Source: Escherichia coli (GTDB lineage Bacteria; Pseudomonadota; Gammaproteobacteria; Enterobacterales; Enterobacteriaceae). From it: a DNA stretch of 42,441 nt. Location: assembly GCF_003334385.1 (NCBI RefSeq), contig NZ_QOWN01000037.1. The stretch is one strand, 5' to 3'. The position numbers and the translations under genes were made by a program. The notes below the pieces were generated by a model. The model was not told where the DNA came from. It saw nothing but the letters and a program-made list of their open reading frames with translations, and made no database searches. Of the stretch, positions 2,534 through 20,888 are shown one piece after another (the first letter of the stretch is position 1; each line of letters starts with the position of its first letter).

Positions 2534-4414
2534 TTAATACTCCGTCACGTTTTCCTGTCGCCACGCCTCGTCATATTCCGATTTCGGCATATTGGCGATG
2601 TAGCTATAAGGCGATCCTGATTCAAGTTGCAGGAACTGGTGCGATTGCTCGTCAAGGAACAACGGGACACCACCTTCCCAACCTTCGCCGTTACGTTGTT
2701 TTTCAAGCATCAAAACAGATGCCGGAGATGCCAGTAGCTGTTCGTCCTTCTCTGACATCTTTTCACCACTCTGAACTCTCTGTAACGCTCTCTCGCGAGC
2801 CTTGTTACGCCAGATGATGAAAAGGTTGTCTGTCAGGTCTGTTATCGCTCCAGAGCCTTTTACGTCCATTTTCCCGGTTGGTTTTTCTTCGCTGTCTCCT
2901 TTTCGCGAGTGAGTAACGAGAATGACGTGGGAGTTTGTTTTGTTTTTGAAGTCGCAAATCAAGTCAACAAACGCCTTCTGCCCGTTATAGTCATCGTCGC
3001 CTATGCCACATTTCATCAGGCTGTCGATGATGAATAACTGGATCCCGTATCGGCGGCGAGCGTAGTCGAATATTTCGATCAGCCTGTCGGCTTTCGCCGT
3101 TCCGGTCAGGCCAAACACCCAAAGTCTTTCGTCATAAAATTTAAATGCAGAGTCAATTTCCAGCACTGGCGGCATCTTGCAGCACGTCGCCTGACGGGTA
3201 AGGCGCTTAAGGAGAATACCAGGCTTCAGCTCAAGTGACGCGATGCACGTCTTCACACCCTGACGCATTGCCTCAAGTGCCATATGCCCGACAACCTCCG
3301 TTTTTCCGTGACCGTTCACACCATTGACCAGCGTCAACTCGGCCTCACGGAACTGGAATTTATCTGCCAGAGATTCCCACGGTGGATTAAACAGATACTG
3401 CTGCTTGCCGTAGAAAGCGTTGATAGTGTCCTGGTAAAACTCTCGCGCGCTGTAGAGTTCTTCAGGATCGAAGTAGGATGCCGTGCCGATGTACTGCCAG
3501 ATTTCATCCTCGGTAACACCGTTCATCAGGCATTCGTTGATGTCTTTGTACGGCAGAGTAACAAGACGGCAACGATGTTCACCGAGTCGGCTTGCGATTT
3601 CCCTTGCGGCTTCACGACCAACATCATCAACGTCCATCGAGATGAATATTTCCTCAAACCTGTCGAGGTTGTGATACTCAAACTCAATCCACTGTTGCTT
3701 AGCGCCTTTCCCGCCACCAAACGGCACGGATAACGCCGAGATGCCGTATTGCGCATAGCTCATACAATCAATTTCGCCTTCGCAAAGTACAACCGCCCTC
3801 ACGCCAGCGTCCAGAGCCTGCCATCCGAACAGACAAGGTTCACAATCACCTTCTGCCATAATGACTTTCTTCCCGTCCGGGCGCTCAGTGCTGATTCGCT
3901 TGACCTGCAACAACTCACCATCGCGTTTGTACGGAAGCACCAGTGCATCAAGTTCTCGTTCTCCATTCCACACCTTGCCGCTGACAACCTCGTAGCGCTT
4001 TACGACTTCTGGCGATATGCCACGCGATTGCAGGTACTCAAGATGGGATTCTGTTCTGGTAACGTAGCGGGCGATTTTCTTGCGGTCAGGTCTGGAGAAT
4101 TTCTTCTCACGTTTGGCATCGAAATGGTGATCGTCATCCTTGATTCCGAGAAAGGCTTTCGCTTCCTGCATAGCCTGATGCAGGTTAATTCCTCGACATG
4201 CCATCCACAAATCAAGCATGTCACCGCCGTCCCCCTCAGCGAAATCAGCCCATTTTTTCTTGCCGCTAAGGTTGACCTTAAGGCTGTTTCCCTTGTCACC
4301 GTTGACGTTACCGGCAACCCACTCATGCCCCTCTTTCTTGCCGTTTGGCAACAGGTGCGGAGCCACCCTGTCAACCTGCGCCCAAAGCAGGTCGCTAAGT
4401 TCACTTGGCCTCAT
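2534..4414 (-). CDS. Replicative primase-helicase (N-terminal TOPRIM primase fused to C-terminal DnaB/SF4-like P-loop helicase)
   Basis: 626 aa; TOPRIM-like LCEGEIDCMS followed by DVDDVG; Walker A GVNGHGKTE and Walker B-like LFIIDSLMK in the C-terminal half; GAGGG RBS; sits where lambda P would be. Confidence 0.7.
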   Translation of the reverse strand: MRPSELSDLLWAQVDRVAPHLLPNGKKEGHEWVAGNVNGDKGNSLKVNLSGKKKWADFAEGDGGDMLDLWMACRGINLHQAMQEAKAFLGIKDDDHHFDAKREKKFSRPDRKKIARYVTRTESHLEYLQSRGISPEVVKRYEVVSGKVWNGERELDALVLPYKRDGELLQVKRISTERPDGKKVIMAEGDCEPCLFGWQALDAGVRAVVLCEGEIDCMSYAQYGISALSVPFGGGKGAKQQWIEFEYHNLDRFEEIFISMDVDDVGREAAREIASRLGEHRCRLVTLPYKDINECLMNGVTEDEIWQYIGTASYFDPEELYSAREFYQDTINAFYGKQQYLFNPPWESLADKFQFREAELTLVNGVNGHGKTEVVGHMALEAMRQGVKTCIASLELKPGILLKRLTRQATCCKMPPVLEIDSAFKFYDERLWVFGLTGTAKADRLIEIFDYARRRYGIQLFIIDSLMKCGIGDDDYNGQKAFVDLICDFKNKTNSHVILVTHSRKGDSEEKPTGKMDVKGSGAITDLTDNLFIIWRNKARERALQRVQSGEKMSEKDEQLLASPASVLMLEKQRNGEGWEGGVPLFLDEQSHQFLQLESGSPYSYIANMPKSEYDEAWRQENVTEY

Positions 4415-4518
4415 GATTCCCTCAGATTGAGATTTTTAAACCAGAAATCGACAAACGAAATACTTAACCAGCCGTGGTTATAACCAGCGACCAGTAACGA
4501 TTTGATTTTTGATTTCAT
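4411..4518 (-). CDS. Small coupled ORF (35 aa) between O and the primase-helicase
   Basis: MKSKIKSLLVAGYNHGWLSISFVDFWFKNLNLRES; AGGTG RBS inside the O 3' end; its stop overlaps the primase-helicase ATG (ATGA). Below the track size cut-off. Confidence 0.35.
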   Translation of the reverse strand: MKSKIKSLLVAGYNHGWLSISFVDFWFKNLNLRES

Positions 4519-4521
4519 GGT

Positions 4522-5382
4522 TCACCTGTCGAAAAACACGTAGCCTGTTTTCGATACGGTGATTGCGGATGATGGTTTGGATTGTGGTTGAATGGTTTCT
4601 GGCTTCTCGTCGTTCCAGCGTTGACCGTTCAGGTAGCTCGATGGTAACAACCTGTCGAATCCGAACTGCTTACCATTCCTGCATGCGATGTCTTCTGCCA
4701 GCATCGTGGCAAACTCGCTTGCCGTACCCCTGGTAGTTTTACGCCATTCCCTGAACTGTGTTCTGAATGCCGAAGCTGCGTTTTTCTTCCCGGCCTTCCG
4801 CATGCCTGCACACCAGAATATTTCCTCGAATGCCTTGTCGGTTTCTTCGTGACGGTCAGGTGATTTTTCACACTCCGTCCGAACACTTTCGGACATAGTG
4901 TTTTTATTATTTCTTTTTTCTTTTGTAATAGTTTCTTTTGTGTGTCCCTGTTTTGGTGACAGCGCTGTCACCGTTTTGGTGACACTTTTTGTCACCAATG
5001 CAGTGACATTATCACCAGAGTAGTGACACCCTTCGATTTGCCATTCCTCGATGTTCTTGTTAGGCCCGATTTGCTGGCCTTCGCGAAGGATAACCTTCAT
5101 CGCGATAAGCTCATTCTTGGCCTTGTTTACCTTCTGTCTTGGCAGCCTGGTAATTTGAGCTAACTGACTATCAGAGATGCGATCCATCTTTTTACCGTAG
5201 CCGTATGTTTTACGGCATATGGCGTGGGCAACCTTGCTCTGATTTTTCGTTAAATCTGCGCCGATAAGCTCTTCATACAGGGCATTTGCAAGACGGGTAT
5301 AACCATCTTCAACTTCTGCCACACGACGCTCCACAGGCCGTTGTGAAGGCCTTAAATGTGTTACGGTTGCAAGATTACTCAT
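4522..5382 (-). CDS. O: Replication initiator O (lambda-O-like N-terminal domain, divergent C-terminal domain)
   Basis: N-terminal region ([56 protein letters not shown]...GPNKNIEEW) parallels lambda O; iterons lie inside the gene. Confidence 0.8.
4895..5031. repeat. Phage replication origin inside O: four iterons plus adjacent AT-rich region
   Basis: GGTGACAGCGCTGTCACC (4955-4972), GGTGACACTTTTTGTCACC (4978-4996), GTGACATTATCAC (~5003-5015) and GTGACACC (~5023-5030) at ~23-bp spacing, each with internal dyad; AT-rich stretch 4895-4940. Same organisation as lambda ori. Confidence 0.7.
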
Positions 5383-5521
5383 GACCTTTCTCCTTCTGCA
5401 TCAGCTTCACTTTTTCCAACTCAGCCCGGAATCGACCAGGCTGCTTGAAGCTGGACAGGAAGCGATCACGTAGTATGTGTTTGTGAATTTTGTCCTGGTA
5501 AGGACTGAGTTGTTTTGTCAT
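5375..5521 (-). CDS. Small basic protein (48 aa) between cII and O
   Basis: [48 protein letters not shown]; GGAG RBS 5 nt upstream; its 3' end overlaps the O start by 8 nt. Confidence 0.4.
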
Positions 5522-5555
5522 AATTACTCCTGTGGATTGATCCAGTCTTTCTACA

Positions 5556-5834
5556 TCAGGCCTCGAAGAATTCGCCGTTCTTCGGGGCTTTTTCTTTTGT
5601 CAGCATTCTGGCTACTTTCTTAGCCAGTTCCGCCAACTCCTCGTCTTCAACACCCCATTCAAGAACAGCCAGAAGCATTCCCATTTTTGGGATGAAGCTG
5701 TCTTTCCATCGCGAAATTTGCGATTCATTAATCCCTAACGCGTCGGCAACCTTTCGCTGACCACGTACAGCAATTCGATTCAGGATGTTGCTTGTAATTG
5801 CATTCGCTTTCTTGCGAGTACTTGTAAGTTGCAT
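5556..5834 (-). CDS. cII: CII transcriptional activator
   Basis: 92 aa with the lambda-CII-like core ([42 protein letters not shown]); located after cro and nutR. Confidence 0.85.
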
Positions 5835-5942: not shown

Positions 5943-6143
5943 CTATTTGTTTTTCTTGTTGCTTGGGAAAGGACGAACTTCCTCTCCAATCACACTGCCA
6001 TCAGGCTTTACCGTAACCATAATGTTACGGCCTGCCAGAATGGCCTTGCTGATAGCGCACTGGATTACACCAAAGTCACTGGCTGCTTTAGCCTGTCCAT
6101 GGATTTTGGCGTAATCGGCAAGTGTCATTCGAATCATATGCAC
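5943..6143 (-). CDS. cro: Cro repressor
   Basis: 66 aa ([58 protein letters not shown]) close to lambda Cro; the true start may be the second ATG at 6137. Confidence 0.85.
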
Positions 6144-6243: not shown

Positions 6244-6960
6244 ATGGAAAATAAAAAATCACTGACGACAGAACAGCTCGAAGACGCTAAGCGGCTTAAG
6301 GCTTTGTATGAGTCAAAAAAGAAAGAATTGGGAATAACCCAATACTCAATCGCTGATGAACTGGGTATCACCCAAGGAGCGGTAGGGCATTATCTTAATG
6401 GCAGAAACGCGCTAAACGTTGAGGTCGCATCTGGTTTTGCACGATTGTTGCAAGTCTCAATTGCTGATTTTAGCCAGTCAATTGCTGCCAAGGTTGCAGA
6501 ACAGGCAGAAAGCCTTAAGAGCGATGCCAACGTAAGGTATGCAGGGGAATACAGAGCAGGAAAGAGGTATCCGGTGTTAAGCAGTATCCAGGCTGGCTCG
6601 TGGTGTGAAGCATGCGAACCATACACCATTAAAGACATAGATGTTTGGCTTGAGTCTGACGCGCATATTCAAGGTAATGCGTTCTGGCTTAAAGTGGAAG
6701 GTGATTCAATGACGGCACCGGTTGGGTTAAGCATTCCAGAGGGAACATTCGTTCTTTTCGATACCGGAAGGGAGGCGATCAACGGCAGCTTGGTCATAGC
6801 AAAACTTTCTGACTCTAACGAAGCAACATTCAAGAAGCTGATAATCGACGGCGGAAATAAATACCTCAAGGGACTTAACCCTGCATGGCCTCTCGTGCCA
6901 ATCAATGGAAACTGCAAGATTATAGGCGTTGCAATTGAGACAAAACTAAGGCTGGTTTGA
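6244..6960 (+). CDS. cI: CI prophage repressor (HTH plus S24 LexA-like autopeptidase domain)
   Basis: 238 aa; parallels lambda CI in the N-terminal region (LTTEQLEDAKRLKALYESKKKELGITQ) and the C-terminal domain (FWLKVEGDSMTAP...FKKLI); the DNA-binding helix differs. Confidence 0.85.
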   Translation: MENKKSLTTEQLEDAKRLKALYESKKKELGITQYSIADELGITQGAVGHYLNGRNALNVEVASGFARLLQVSIADFSQSIAAKVAEQAESLKSDANVRYAGEYRAGKRYPVLSSIQAGSWCEACEPYTIKDIDVWLESDAHIQGNAFWLKVEGDSMTAPVGLSIPEGTFVLFDTGREAINGSLVIAKLSDSNEATFKKLIIDGGNKYLKGLNPAWPLVPINGNCKIIGVAIETKLRLV

Positions 6961-15745: not shown

Positions 15746-16793
15746 GCGCCGGGATTTACCCCCTAACCTTTATATAAGAAACAATGGATATTACTGCTAC
15801 AGGGACCCAAGGACGGGTAAAGAGTTCGGATTAGGCAGAGACAGGAGGATAGCAATCACTGAAGCTATACAGGCCAACATTGAGTTATTTTCAGGACACA
15901 AACACAAGCCTCTGACAGCAAGAATCAACAGTGATAATTCTGTTACGTTACATTCATGGCTTGATCGCTACGAAAAAATCCTCTCCAGCAGAGGAATCAA
16001 GCAGAAGACACTCATAAATTACATGAGCAAAATTAAAGCAATAAGGAGGGGTCTACCTGATGTTCCACTTGAAGACATCACCACAAAAGAAATTGCGGCA
16101 ATGCTCAATGGATACATAGACGAGGGCAAGGCGGCATCAGCCAAGTTAATCAGATCAACACTGAGCGATGCATTCCGAGAGGCAATAGCTGAAGGCCATA
16201 TAACAACAAACCCGGTCGCTGCCACTCGCGCAGCAAAATCAGAGGTAAGGAGATCAAGACTTACGGCTGACGAATACCTGAAAATTTATCAAGCAGCAGA
16301 ATCATCACCATGTTGGCTCAGACTTGCAATGGAACTGGCTGTTGTTACCGGGCAGCGAGTTGGGGATTTATGCGAAATGAAATGGTCTGATATCGTAGAT
16401 GGATATTTTTATGTCGAGCAAAGCAAAACAGGCGTAAAAATTGCCATCCCTACAACATTGCATGTTGATGCTCTCGGGATATCAATGAAGGAAACACTTG
16501 ATAAATGCAAAGAGATTCTTGGCGGAGAAACCATAATTGCATCTACTCGTCGTGAACCGCTTTCATCCGGCACAGTATCAAGGTATTTTATGCGCGCACG
16601 AAAAGCATCAGGTCTTTCCTTCGAAGGGGATCCGCCTACCTTTCACGAGTTGCGCAGTTTGTCTGCAAGACTCTATGAGAAGCAGATAAGCGATAAGTTT
16701 GCTCAACATCTTCTCGGGCATAAGTCGGACACCATGGCATCACAGTATCGTGATGACAGAGGCAGGGAGTGGGACAAAATTGAAATCAAATAA
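15723..16793 (+). CDS. int: Lambda-type tyrosine integrase
   Basis: 356 aa, MGRRRSHERRDLPPNLYIRNNGYYCYRDPRTGKEFGLGRDRRIAITEAIQANIELFSG... essentially lambda Int as recalled. Confidence 0.95.
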   Translation: MGRRRSHERRDLPPNLYIRNNGYYCYRDPRTGKEFGLGRDRRIAITEAIQANIELFSGHKHKPLTARINSDNSVTLHSWLDRYEKILSSRGIKQKTLINYMSKIKAIRRGLPDVPLEDITTKEIAAMLNGYIDEGKAASAKLIRSTLSDAFREAIAEGHITTNPVAATRAAKSEVRRSRLTADEYLKIYQAAESSPCWLRLAMELAVVTGQRVGDLCEMKWSDIVDGYFYVEQSKTGVKIAIPTTLHVDALGISMKETLDKCKEILGGETIIASTRREPLSSGTVSRYFMRARKASGLSFEGDPPTFHELRSLSARLYEKQISDKFAQHLLGHKSDTMASQYRDDRGREWDKIEIK

Positions 16794-16881
16794 TGATTTT
16801 ATTTTGACTGATAGTGACCTGTTCGTTGCAACAAATTGATAAGCAATGCTTTTTTATAATGCCAACTTAGTATAAAAAAGC
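16794..16881. other. attL: lambda P' arm plus 15-bp core, joined to the bacterial B arm
   Basis: Plus strand 16794-16866 is the reverse complement of the lambda attP P' arm (including AGGTCACTATCAGTCAAAAT arm sites); core TTAGTATAAAAAAGC at 16867-16881; followed by AGCAGG (complement of attB CCTGCT). Confidence 0.9.
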
Positions 16882-16927
16882 AGGCTTCAACGGATTCATT
16901 TTTCTATTTCATAGCCCGGAGCAACCT

Positions 16928-18211
16928 GTGAACACATTTTCAGTTTCCCGTCTGGCGCTGGCATTGGCTTTTGGCGTGACGCTGACCGCCTGTAGCTCAA
17001 CCCCGCCCGATCAACGTCCTTCTGATCAAACCGCGCCTGGTACCTCTTCTCGCCCGATTCTGTCGGCAAAAGAAGCGCAGAATTTCGATGCTCAACACTA
17101 TTTTGCATCCCTGACACCAGGTGCTGCAGCGTGGAATCCTTCCCCGATTACCCTGCCTGCGCAACCTGACTTTGTTGTCGGCCCGGCGGGCACTCAAGGT
17201 GTAACGCATACCACGATTCAGGCGGCGGTAGATGCGGCAATTATCAAGCGTACCAACAAGCGCCAGTATATTGCCGTGATGCCTGGTGAGTATCAGGGAA
17301 CGGTATATGTCCCTGCCGCTCCGGGTGGAATTACTCTGTACGGTACAGGTGAAAAACCGATTGATGTGAAGATTGGGCTTTCCCTTGATGGTGGCATGAG
17401 CCCTGCCGACTGGCGTCACGACGTCAACCCGCGCGGCAAATATATGCCAGGTAAACCAGCGTGGTATATGTACGATAGCTGCCAGAGCAAACGCAGCGAC
17501 AGTATCGGTGTTCTCTGCTCTGCGGTCTTCTGGTCACAAAACAATGGCCTGCAACTGCAAAATCTGACCATCGAAAACACGCTGGGCGATAGCGTAGATG
17601 CAGGTAACCATCCGGCGGTAGCACTGCGTACTGATGGTGACCAGGTACAGATTAACAACGTTAACATTCTCGGTCGTCAGAACACCTTCTTTGTCACCAA
17701 CAGCGGTGTGCAGAACCGTCTGGAAACGAATCGTCAGCCGCGTACGCTGGTGACCAACAGCTACATTGAAGGGGATGTGGATATCGTTTCTGGTCGCGGC
17801 GCAGTGGTGTTCGATAACACCGAATTCCGCGTGGTGAACTCACGTACTCAGCAAGAAGCGTATGTGTTTGCACCGGCTACGCTGTCCAACATTTACTACG
17901 GTTTCCTCGCCGTAAACAGCCGTTTCAATGCTTTCGGTGATGGTGTGGCGCAACTGGGCCGCTCGCTGGATGTTGATGCCAATACCAACGGTCAGGTGGT
18001 GATCCGTGATAGCGCCATCAACGAAGGTTTTAACACGGCTAAACCGTGGGCCGATGCGGTGATCTCTAATCGTCCGTTTGCGGGTAATACCGGCAGCGTA
18101 GATGATAACGACGAAATACAGCGCAATCTGAATGACACTAACTACAACCGCATGTGGGAATACAATAACCGCGGCGTGGGTAGTAAAGTGGTTGCAGAGG
18201 CGAAGAAGTAA
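16928..18211 (+). CDS. ybhC: Pectinesterase-like outer-membrane lipoprotein YbhC
   Basis: 427 aa, GTG start, lipobox LTAC; matches K-12 YbhC as recalled. Confidence 0.9.
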   Translation: MNTFSVSRLALALAFGVTLTACSSTPPDQRPSDQTAPGTSSRPILSAKEAQNFDAQHYFASLTPGAAAWNPSPITLPAQPDFVVGPAGTQGVTHTTIQAAVDAAIIKRTNKRQYIAVMPGEYQGTVYVPAAPGGITLYGTGEKPIDVKIGLSLDGGMSPADWRHDVNPRGKYMPGKPAWYMYDSCQSKRSDSIGVLCSAVFWSQNNGLQLQNLTIENTLGDSVDAGNHPAVALRTDGDQVQINNVNILGRQNTFFVTNSGVQNRLETNRQPRTLVTNSYIEGDVDIVSGRGAVVFDNTEFRVVNSRTQQEAYVFAPATLSNIYYGFLAVNSRFNAFGDGVAQLGRSLDVDANTNGQVVIRDSAINEGFNTAKPWADAVISNRPFAGNTGSVDDNDEIQRNLNDTNYNRMWEYNNRGVGSKVVAEAKK

Positions 18212-18227
18212 GAGCAATTAACTATTT

Positions 18228-18430
<203 letters not shown>

Positions 18431-18444
18431 TCACATGGCGCTTT

Positions 18445-20706
18445 TTACATCTGACGGTTTTTATTGAAGTTAATCAAACTACCCGCCTTGATAATCTCGC
18501 GCTCTTCAGCAGTCAGACTTTCCATATAGAGCGTAATTTCCGTTACCGGCGCATCTTCATGGATCACATAACCTTTAAACGTCGTACCCGGATTATCCAG
18601 CGCCGCTTTAATGCCAGGGATGTAAATGTAATCCCCCACTTCAAAGGTTGGTACTTCCGCCATTTGCAGCGGTAACATCCCCCAGTTGATGACGTTAGAA
18701 CGATAGCGTTTAGTCGCGTACTCCTCGGCAATATTCGCCAGACCGCCAATCACACGCTGGCAGCTCGCCGCCTGTTCACGCGCAGAACCATCGCCTGGTT
18801 TCACCGCATAGACCATGCTGCCAATTTCAGTTTGCAGCGGATCAATATGCTCCTGACCAGCAATCTGCTTAATGCGCGCAAACACCTCTGTCAGCTCGCT
18901 GACATTCCCCGCCAGACGCTGATTTTCCAGCTCAGCAGTCGCTTTACTTCTGCTAACATAACCGGGATCGCGGCGAGACAGGGTAAACTCCGCCAGACCA
19001 ATCGGATTTGAACGATAAGAAGAGGTTTCACCGGAAGGAATCAGTTCGTCGGTGGTGGTCACTTCGTCGAGGATCTTCGAGCACACTTTCAGGACGATAT
19101 TGTCAGTCAGCGCACCCAATTCCGGCCAGTCTTTAATGTTCGGCCCGTAAATCAGCGGTTGCTGAGTTGCCCCTTTCACAAAGCCCTGATAAACACGGTT
19201 TTTATACGGCGTTACATCGAAGGCGTACTCCGGCACGTTGTCCCAGCAATCAAGTTCGCTGGCAGAGGTTAAATAGCCACCGTTTGCCGCAGTCGCAGCG
19301 ATAGAACGAGCGTCCATCAACGCCACCGCTGACATCTGCCCATTAGCTGGCTTAGAGCCTTCGCGGTTCGGGAAGTTACGCGTGGTGTGGCGAATACTCA
19401 AACCGTTGTTGATTGGCGTATCGCCCGCGCCAAAGCATGGGCCGCAGAACGCGGTTCTGATGATTGCGCCTGCGCCAATCAAATCTGCTACCACACCTTT
19501 TTTGGCGAGATCCATAAACACCGGCTGCGATGACGGGTAAACTGCCAGCGAGAAGGTGTCATTGCCACAGGATTGACCGCGCAGTGCATTCGCCGCCGCG
19601 ATGACGTTTTCGTAGTTACCGCCAGAACAGCCCGCGATAATCCCCTGCTGCACTTTCAGGCGACCATTTTCCACTTTATCCAGCAGCGAGAGTTTGGCTT
19701 TACCGTGCGCCACGCGTTCGGACTCAATTTCAATCTCACGCAGAATGTCGGTCAGGTTCTGGTTCAGTGTGTCGATTTCATACACGTTGCTCGGGTGGAA
19801 CGGCAGCGCAATCATTGGTTTGATGGCGCTTAAATCAACGCTGATGCAGCCATCGTAGTACGCCATCGGTTGAGGGTTAAGCTGGCAGTAATCCTGGCCG
19901 CGACCGTGCAGCGCCAGCCAGTTATGGACTTCTTCATCGGTTTGCCAGACAGAACTTAAACAGGTCGTTTCAGTGGTCATCACGTCAACGCTGTTACGGA
20001 AATCGGTAGAGAGCGCGCTAACGCCCGGTCCAACGAACTCCATGACTTTGTTTTTGACGTAACCGTTTTTGAACACCGCGCCAATGATAGCCAGCGCCAC
20101 ATCCTGTGGCCCCACATACGGCGCAGGTTTTCCGGTCAGATGCACCGCAACCACGCCCGGATAGTCGATATCCCAGGTGTCATTAAGCAGCTGTTTTACC
20201 AACTCACCGCCGCCCTCACCGACTGCCATTGTCCCTAATGCACCGTAACGGGTGTGGCTGTCTGACCCGAGGATCATTTTGCCGCCGCCTGCCATCATCT
20301 CACGCATATATTGATGGATGACCGCAATATGCGGAGGCACAAAAATACCGCCATAACGCTGGGCCGCCGATAAACCAAAAACATGGTCATCACCGTTAAT
20401 AGTGCCGCCGACGGCGCAGAGTGAGTTATGGCAGTTGGTCAGCACATACGGCAGCGGGAAACGTTCCATACCGGACGCTTTAGCGGTCTGTACAATACCA
20501 ACAAAGGTAATATCGTGAGAGGCTAATGAATCAAACTTAATTTTAAGTTTATCCATATTTCCGGACGTATTATGCGAAGAGAGAATAGACCAGGCAATAG
20601 TGCCTTTTTTGGCTTCTTCTTTTTTAATTTCGCCGGTGAAATGTTCTTCGGCAATTATTTCGTTATTACTGGCGAGAAACACGCCTTTTTCAGATAACTT
20701 GATCAT
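18445..20706 (-). CDS. ybhJ: Aconitase-family putative hydratase YbhJ
   Basis: 753 aa from [18 protein letters not shown]; the track ORF has 8 extra upstream codons. Confidence 0.85.
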
Positions 20707-20888
20707 CAAATGCTCCAGATATCTGCGCACCGTGAAGTGCGCAGAAAGATAATAAATGGATATACTCTAAATAATTCGAGTTGCAGGAAGGCGACAAGCG
20801 AGTGAATCCCCAGGAGCTTACATAAGTAAGTGACTGGGGTGAGCGAACGCAGACGCAGCACATGCAACTTGAAGTATGACGAGAATAT

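Follow-up and report, generated by a model that had tools for sequence, protein, structure and literature searches.

A putative lambda-type replication origin with TGTCACC iterons inside the O gene of an Escherichia coli prophage

The O gene and its surroundings

The window analysed here, a 42,441-nucleotide stretch of an E. coli genome (contig NZ_QOWN01000037.1), comprises a prophage end and host chromosome, with a tyrosine integrase ORF (15723-16793), ybhC (16928-18211) and ybhJ (18445-20730) in a stretch (15723-20730) that we take to be the region in which the attB site of lambda classically lies in E. coli. The prophage carries an inverted lambdoid early-right operon, in which cI lies on the + strand and the cro-like and cII-like genes, a 48-aa ORF, O, a 35-aa ORF and a primase/helicase gene are all on the - strand (Table 1); in the phage records that match it, this stretch is labelled as CII and replication protein O. 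From this gene order early rightward transcription would be expected to pass through the candidate origin described below. Several RefSeq records of phages call the 48-aa ORF a ‘tail protein', which is probably an annotation error because the ORF sits in the early operon. The stop codon of the 35-aa ORF overlaps the start of the primase-helicase gene (ATGA), and the counterpart of the latter in Salmonella phage ES18, gp61, carries the annotation ‘similar to T7 gene 4'. A scan with Rfam identified the Lambda_thermo cIII thermoregulator in the early-left region of the prophage (10216-10274, + strand; 88.5 bits, above the gathering score) and naRNA4 in the host flank (18280-18350, - strand; 60.7 bits, where the gathering score is 59.5), and gave no match in the ori region.

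Table 1. Features of the early-right operon and of the candidate origin (positions in the window)
Feature	Position	Strand	Evidence or remark
cI	6244-6960	+	
cro-like	5943-6143	-	
cII-like	5556-5834	-	
48-aa ORF overlapping O start (orf48/DUF2740 position)	5375-5521	-	
O-type replication initiator gene, 286 aa, putative origin inside	4522-5382	-	ORF; Pfam, TIGR01610, lambda O similarity
O N-terminal winged-helix DNA-binding domain, aa 20-114	5041-5325	-	Pfam and AlphaFold2 model
Predicted recognition helix (helix 3), aa 82-94	5101-5139	-	AlphaFold2 model
Iteron 1 (ITN1)	5010-5028	-	O-sense TGTCACTactctGGTGATA; aligned with lambda iteron 1
Iteron 2 (ITN2)	4990-5008	-	TGTCACTgcattGGTGACA; start 20 bp past ITN1, as in lambda
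Iteron 3 (ITN3)	4966-4984	-	TGTCACCaaaacGGTGACA; perfect dyad, AAAAC spacer like lambda; start 24 bp past ITN2, as in lambda
Iteron 4 (ITN4)	4943-4961	-	TGTCACCaaaacAGGGACA; right arm degenerate, running into conserved ACACAAAAGA; start 23 bp past ITN3, as in lambda
AT-rich block, presumed DNA-unwinding element (44 bp)	4899-4942	-	O-sense CACACAAAAGAAACTATTACAAAAGAAAAAAGAAATAATAAAAACA
Palindrome directly after AT-rich block	4870-4901	.	Arms 4870-4883 and 4888-4901
O C-terminal domain, aa 157-286, presumed partner-recruiting module	4525-4914	-	phrog_33384, E 1.7e-88
35-aa ORF between O and primase-helicase, ES18 gp60 position	4411-4518	-	MKSKIKSLLVAGYNHGWLSISFVDFWFKNLNLRES; translation; ES18 annotation
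Phage primase/helicase, 626 aa	2534-4414	-	phrog_239 DNA primase/helicase, E 8e-171

The O protein matches Pfam Phage_rep_O (PF04492) over residues 20-114 (E 3.9e-37) and NCBIfam TIGR01610 phage_O_Nterm with 105.3 bits (cut-off 45.5). It shares 49% identity with lambda O over residues 1-157, and past residue 157 displays no significant similarity to that protein. In the AlphaFold2 model of residues 1-115 (mean pLDDT 79) the N-terminal region adopts a winged helix, comprising helices 46-60, 71-78 and 82-94 and a wing hairpin at 98-107. Among solved structures, the closest in fold are winged-helix domains of the MarR/CRP type, although the E-values are weak (~6e-3), and a sequence search of the PDB for an O N-terminal structure returned no match. 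From this model, which is of moderate confidence and whose fold matches are weak, we infer that helix 3 (RQKVN...) is the predicted reader of the half-sites described below; the residues R82, Q83 and V85, which lie where this helix begins, are invariant in all O proteins of the TGTCAC type and different in other O types. The iterons and the AT-rich block (4899-5028) encode residues 119-161 of O, between the Pfam domain and the C-terminal PHROG, and thus lie in the linker of the protein as the first-pass annotation of this DNA had proposed.

Iteron array, AT-rich block and palindrome

That annotation had also described four dyad repeats within O, with the sequence GGTGACA...TGTCACC and a spacing of about 23 bp. 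Four 19-bp units are indeed present and occur beyond chance, but the proposed dyad is half a repeat out of register and corresponds to the junction between iterons, and the spacing is not uniform, the actual starts being 20, 24 and 23 bp apart. The unit is the 7-5-7 dyad TGTCACC-N5-GGTGACA, in which the 5-nt spacer is constant in four of four units and one arm is degenerate in each of ITN1 and ITN4; a repeat finder likewise returned direct repeats of 19-20 nt with this unit. The hexamer GTGACA occurs 16 times in the window, six of the copies falling within 4956-5028. With up to two mismatches the full pattern has four matches in the window, all inside 4943-5028, and with up to three mismatches it has nine, against 1.49 expected per window, a count reached in none of 100 shuffles. 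When scored for four 7-5-7 dyads at the lambda spacing, the position 4943 achieved 23 of 28, the runner-up in the window 18 and the best of 200 block-shuffled windows 20. The iteron array is therefore real, far above chance and the only one in the window. The five matches outside the ori region (at 4294, 10636, 19543, 21603 and 31656, where ~1.5 would be expected in the whole window) were considered as additional lone O sites; all have three mismatches, and they were treated as chance because three of the five are in host DNA. Of the other two, each a single weak match, 4294-4312 falls in the primase-helicase gene and 10636-10654 in the early-left region.

The repeat is a DNA feature and not a peptide repeat, since the four iterons occupy three reading frames: they start at codon positions 1, 3, 3 and 2, and a single DNA motif is read as CH.., VT.., VT.. 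and SP... A repeated peptide as the source of the VT(K/A) motif was thus discounted, the synonymous sites being conserved as well. A binding site for CRP (TGTGA-N6-TCACA) was likewise rejected, as the gap between GTGA and TCAC is here 8-9 nt and not 6.

The four units align column for column with the annotated iterons of lambda. In the O-sense direction they start at 5028, 5008, 4984 and 4961, compared with 39034, 39054, 39078 and 39101 in lambda, such that the start-to-start spacing is equal to that of lambda ITN1-4. It could be argued that the bound unit is nevertheless GGTGACA-N4/5-TGTCACC, with half-sites facing outward, and indeed GGTGACAgcgcTGTCACC (4955-4972) and, in O-sense, GGTGACAaaaagTGTCACC are perfect 7/7 dyads. 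The spacer in this register, however, varies (4, 5 and 1 nt, read off the sequence), only three units can be formed and the N4 form matches once in the ori region, at the first of these dyads, whereas TGTCACC-N5-GGTGACA has a constant 5-nt spacer in the four units and in 78 related loci, and aligns with the iterons defined by footprinting in lambda (PMC7466680). Furthermore, lambda has equivalent junction dyads (GAGGGATaaaacATCCCTC), and the GGTGACA...TGTCACC dyads are thus a by-product of the close packing of palindromic sites. The outward register, which was rejected on the variable spacer and the lambda alignment, is considered very unlikely.

Beside ITN4 lies the AT-rich block that the earlier reading had placed after the repeats, and which measures 44 bp. 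The GC content of positions 4900-4939 is 15% and the AT skew -0.7, the + strand being strongly T-rich. In O-sense the block (CACACAAAAGAAACTATTACAAAAGAAAAAAGAAA) is nearly identical to the AT-rich region of lambda, and it is kept in all O types with 7-5-7 sites. The palindrome that follows (Table 1) is, as a DNA hairpin, predicted at -11.9 kcal/mol (z = -7.6), and is the positional analogue of the right-hand ori palindrome of lambda; a dyad occupies the corresponding coordinate of the gene in lambda, ES18, P22 and phiEt88. In each 7-5-7 O-type origin inspected (the window and L001, L002, L005 and L006) an inverted repeat is located ~476-490 nt into the gene, directly past the AT-rich block. 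This repeat is GTCCGAAagtgTTCGGAC in the window and ES18, and a CCCCC..GGGGG dyad in P22 and phiEt88.

Half-sites, recognition helices and mosaic exchange

Viral contigs were scanned with an alignment of O N-terminal domains, which identified 80 loci, 78 of them usable, with domains 65-100% identical to that of the window. All 78 contain the four units at 20/24/23 spacing with the constant 5-nt spacer and the adjoining ACACAAAAGA, and all 78 keep both TGTCAC..GTGACA and an unchanged helix-3 motif, LPRQKVN. Iteron number is mostly four and is six in eight loci; the six-iteron members of the TGTCAC family are found at L070-L078 (for example L070:1879-2006). In the reverse direction, a search with nothing but the iteron pattern retrieved 120 contigs, of which 108 encode a helix of the LPRQKVN type just upstream; three of the 12 that do not are truncated by a contig end. 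Of 5426 complete E. coli genomes, 175 (~3%) carry the cassette. Relatives of the O N-terminal domain occur in 356 of 50,697 phage records, just 13 of these at 99% identity or above and four at 60-80%.

Conservation was also computed by codon position, over 58 distinct haplotypes from the 78 viral contigs. The third codon positions hold 0.87 bit of information in the N-terminal domain, compared with 1.72 bit in the half-sites; for the GTCAC core the value is 1.84 bit. Conservation at this level equals that of the second codon positions of the N-terminal domain. This pattern indicates that the half-sites are under purifying selection at the DNA level. The helicase partner encoded downstream is not that of lambda, and it might be proposed on this basis that the iterons are a functionless relic, which persists by descent or as coding sequence for the linker while the primase-helicase starts replication elsewhere. 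Synonymous positions, however, are strongly conserved in the half-sites over the 58 haplotypes, unlike those of the domain, and the units span three reading frames; in addition, the cassette retains its iterons whichever partner module it is joined to, the 27 loci with a primase-helicase among them, and is unchanged in deposited phages. A relic is thus as improbable as the outward register.

To place the TGTCAC type among other initiators, helix 3 and half-site were tabulated for six O types (Table 2), a comparison in which phylogeny is not factored out and from which phi80, Gifsy-2 and MPK9 were excluded because their site geometry does not fit 7-5-7, 20/24/23. Across these types the table supports covariation of the iteron with the predicted recognition helix. 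In Proteus phage V3 the DNA of the O N-terminal domain is just 70% identical to that of the window, yet helix and half-site are unchanged. HK97 (L208) and Klebsiella RCIP0114 (L004) share the helix GIHHTHVC and the iteron ATTAGCC-N5-GGCTAAT, which, as judged from this comparison, is a second independent instance of co-conservation of helix and iteron.

Table 2. Helix 3 and half-site in six O types
O type	Helix 3	Half-site
lambda, ES18	LPVKRCN	ATCCCTC
This window, Proteus phage V3	LPRQKVN	TGTCACC
phiEt88	ISRSKAN	TGTTACC
P22	MAPTKCS	ATTTACC
PhiR5_1	ILPHKCS	TTTACCY
HK97, Klebsiella RCIP0114	IHHTHVC	ATTAGCC

The two halves of the O gene have different relatives. PhiR12_1 is 100% identical to the window from the O start to ~4910 and unrelated after that point; it and the other PhiR12 phages have the same N-terminus and iterons followed by a lambda-type O C-terminal domain, P and ren. 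ES18, in contrast, is only ~50% identical over the N-terminal domain, which is of lambda type and associated with ATCCCTC iterons, but 90-100% identical from ~4963 on. The shared part includes the O C-terminal domain (90-100% at the DNA level), the small ORF, the primase-helicase and the palindrome, making ES18 in effect a reciprocal natural chimera. The crossover zone of this mosaic, in which identity to PhiR12_1 stops and identity to ES18 starts, is 4903-4962, at the AT-rich block. In the set of 80 loci, at least five kinds of partner follow the TGTCAC cassette: the primase-helicase (27 loci), the lambda O C-terminal domain with P (14 loci), the P22 gp18 C-terminal domain with a DnaB-like helicase (7 loci), RCIP0114-type partners and partners of unassigned type (18 loci). 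These alignments indicate that the N-terminal domain and the iterons are co-inherited through mosaic breakpoints as a single cassette, and that the breakpoints sit in the shared AT-rich block.

The first-pass annotation had noted that the iteron sequence is unlike that of lambda (TGTCACC here, ATCCCTC in lambda), which holds, and had predicted that this O protein has a distinct DNA-binding specificity. The prediction is supported by the covariation of helix and iteron, the co-inheritance of iterons with the N-terminal domain and the purifying selection acting on the DNA, all of which are comparisons of sequence.

Origin model and relation to known origins

The iterons, AT-rich block and palindrome very probably form the replication origin of this lambdoid prophage, built like lambda ori but belonging to another specificity group, with binding, melting and helicase loading proposed by analogy. 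Every structural element of the lambda scheme is present, and that scheme is thus the best explanation here. In lambda, O dimers bound to 19-bp inverted repeats assemble into the O-some, after which the AT-rich region next to them, 40 bp long, opens on supercoiled DNA (PMC5043065, PMC7466680). By analogy, dimers of the phage's own O protein would bind the four TGTCACC-N5-GGTGACA dyads by means of the N-terminal winged helix, whose helix 3 would read the half-sites. The O-some would then bend and stress the DNA, and the adjacent AT-rich block would melt, aided by rightward early transcription through cro-cII-O (- strand). The C-terminal domain of O would subsequently recruit a helicase. Gene order and the ES18 annotation suggest that this is probably the phage primase-helicase, delivered to the origin in place of P-DnaB, and because the partner is a primase-helicase and not P, what follows O binding may not be the same as in lambda. 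The iterons lie within the transcribed O gene, where bound O could conceivably be a roadblock, and the array might accordingly be viewed as mainly a regulatory operator through which O blocks or attenuates rightward transcription or translation of its own gene, but an operator needs neither the conserved AT-rich block, nor the palindrome, nor the full correspondence to lambda ori, and this autoregulatory role, at most additional to origin function, is the least probable of the alternatives considered.

The lambda-type plan is evident in the position of the origin inside the initiator ORF, the Phage_rep_O domain of that initiator, the four 19-bp 7-5-7 dyads at 20/24/23 spacing, the AAAAC spacers of ITN3 and ITN4, and the CACAAAAGA sequence followed by the asymmetric and near-identical AT-rich block and then by the palindrome. 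The likeness to lambda ori that had been pointed out earlier thus extends to gene position, site number, geometry and spacing as well as to the AT-rich block. The window nevertheless falls outside the lambda specificity group (lambda, 434, ES18 and the Stx phages), in which the half-site is ATCCCTC/GAGGGAT; here it is TGTCACC/GGTGACA, and helix 3 (RQKVNK, compared with VKRCNE in lambda) differs at R82, Q83, V85 and elsewhere. Nor does it follow the lambda O-P-DnaB loading pathway, as the C-terminal domain of its O protein is unrelated to that of lambda and the downstream gene encodes the phrog_239 primase/helicase rather than a loader of the P type. The origins of P22 (gene 18), HK97 (O) and the Stx phages 933W/P27 share the in-gene plan, with type-specific dyads beside CACAAAAGA and an AT-rich block, but have other half-sites (ATTTACC, ATTAGCC and ATCCCTC, respectively) and recognition helices other than that of the window. 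Stx phages contain six lambda-type iterons (PMC7466680), a parallel to the six-iteron members of the TGTCAC family. The iteron origins of plasmids (pSC101, R6K, RK2 and P1) similarly place an array of initiator sites beside an AT-rich unwinding element; in plasmids, however, Rep binds as a monomer to directly repeated iterons (PMC5043065), which are usually in phase with the helix. In the window the two arms of each site are inverted and always 5 nt apart, the site is putatively bound by a dimer, the spacing is 20/24/23 and the array is inside the initiator gene, and hence the origin is not of the plasmid type.

It should be emphasized that an origin of this kind is ordinary textbook material; what is new is the TGTCACC iteron type, whose sequence is present but not annotated in mEp043, Sf101 and SEN22. 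Over positions 4400-5600 the DNA shares 99.3% identity with phage mEp043, 99.1% with Sf101 and 98.1% with SEN22, and the N-terminal domain and iterons of these three phages, vB_EcoP-720R6 and PhiR12_1-5 are 99-100% identical to those of the window. In GenBank a rep_origin ‘similar to lambda ori' is already annotated in ES18 and P22; the records of mEp043, Sf101 and SEN22 hold no rep_origin feature under the match, and the Sf101 genome paper describes no ori. A full-text literature search for the iteron string returned unrelated primer matches only, the searchable literature contained no experiment on binding, unwinding or origin activity for the TGTCACC iteron type, and searches for publications on the coliphages PhiR12 or PhiR5 had no result.

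The current view of how such origins work stays unchanged. This study places, to the base pair and with the correct register, a putative origin for a common lambdoid replicon type. It also provides a natural example of the modular rule of lambdoid phages, by which the N-terminal domain travels with the iterons and the C-terminal domain with the helicase partner. The table of helix 3 and half-site for six O types may aid the annotation of origins, the prediction of replicon incompatibility and the design of orthogonal lambda-type vectors.

The TGTCACC half-site is also found beyond the O family. Arrays of TGTCACC..GGTGACA with GC-rich spacers occur in four of the 12 contigs that lack the LPRQKVN-type helix (L120, L122, L150 and L187), inside a gene and just past an N-terminal wHTH; of the encoded proteins, one has a match to Pfam HTH_36 and three have matches to PHROGs 270, 1032 and 391, annotated as ‘replication initiation protein'. 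Since these arrays lie inside genes for initiators of the HTH_36 type, the same half-site appears to be used by a distant initiator branch. Helix 3 of the four proteins reads (R)xVQR, compared with V85-N86-K87 in the O protein of the window. It is tempting to speculate, although we regard the idea as rather unlikely, that a transferable helix-3 motif (V-N/Q-K/R) reads the TGTCAC half-site in two distant branches, the PF04492 O proteins and the HTH_36-type initiators. If true, there would be a simple code from helix to half-site, by which origin specificity and incompatibility groups could be predicted from sequence and orthogonal lambda-type replicons designed. In L120 the array is followed by an A-rich repeat block, and L099, L107, L108, L123, L140 and L141 were noted alongside as other contigs with the iteron pattern.
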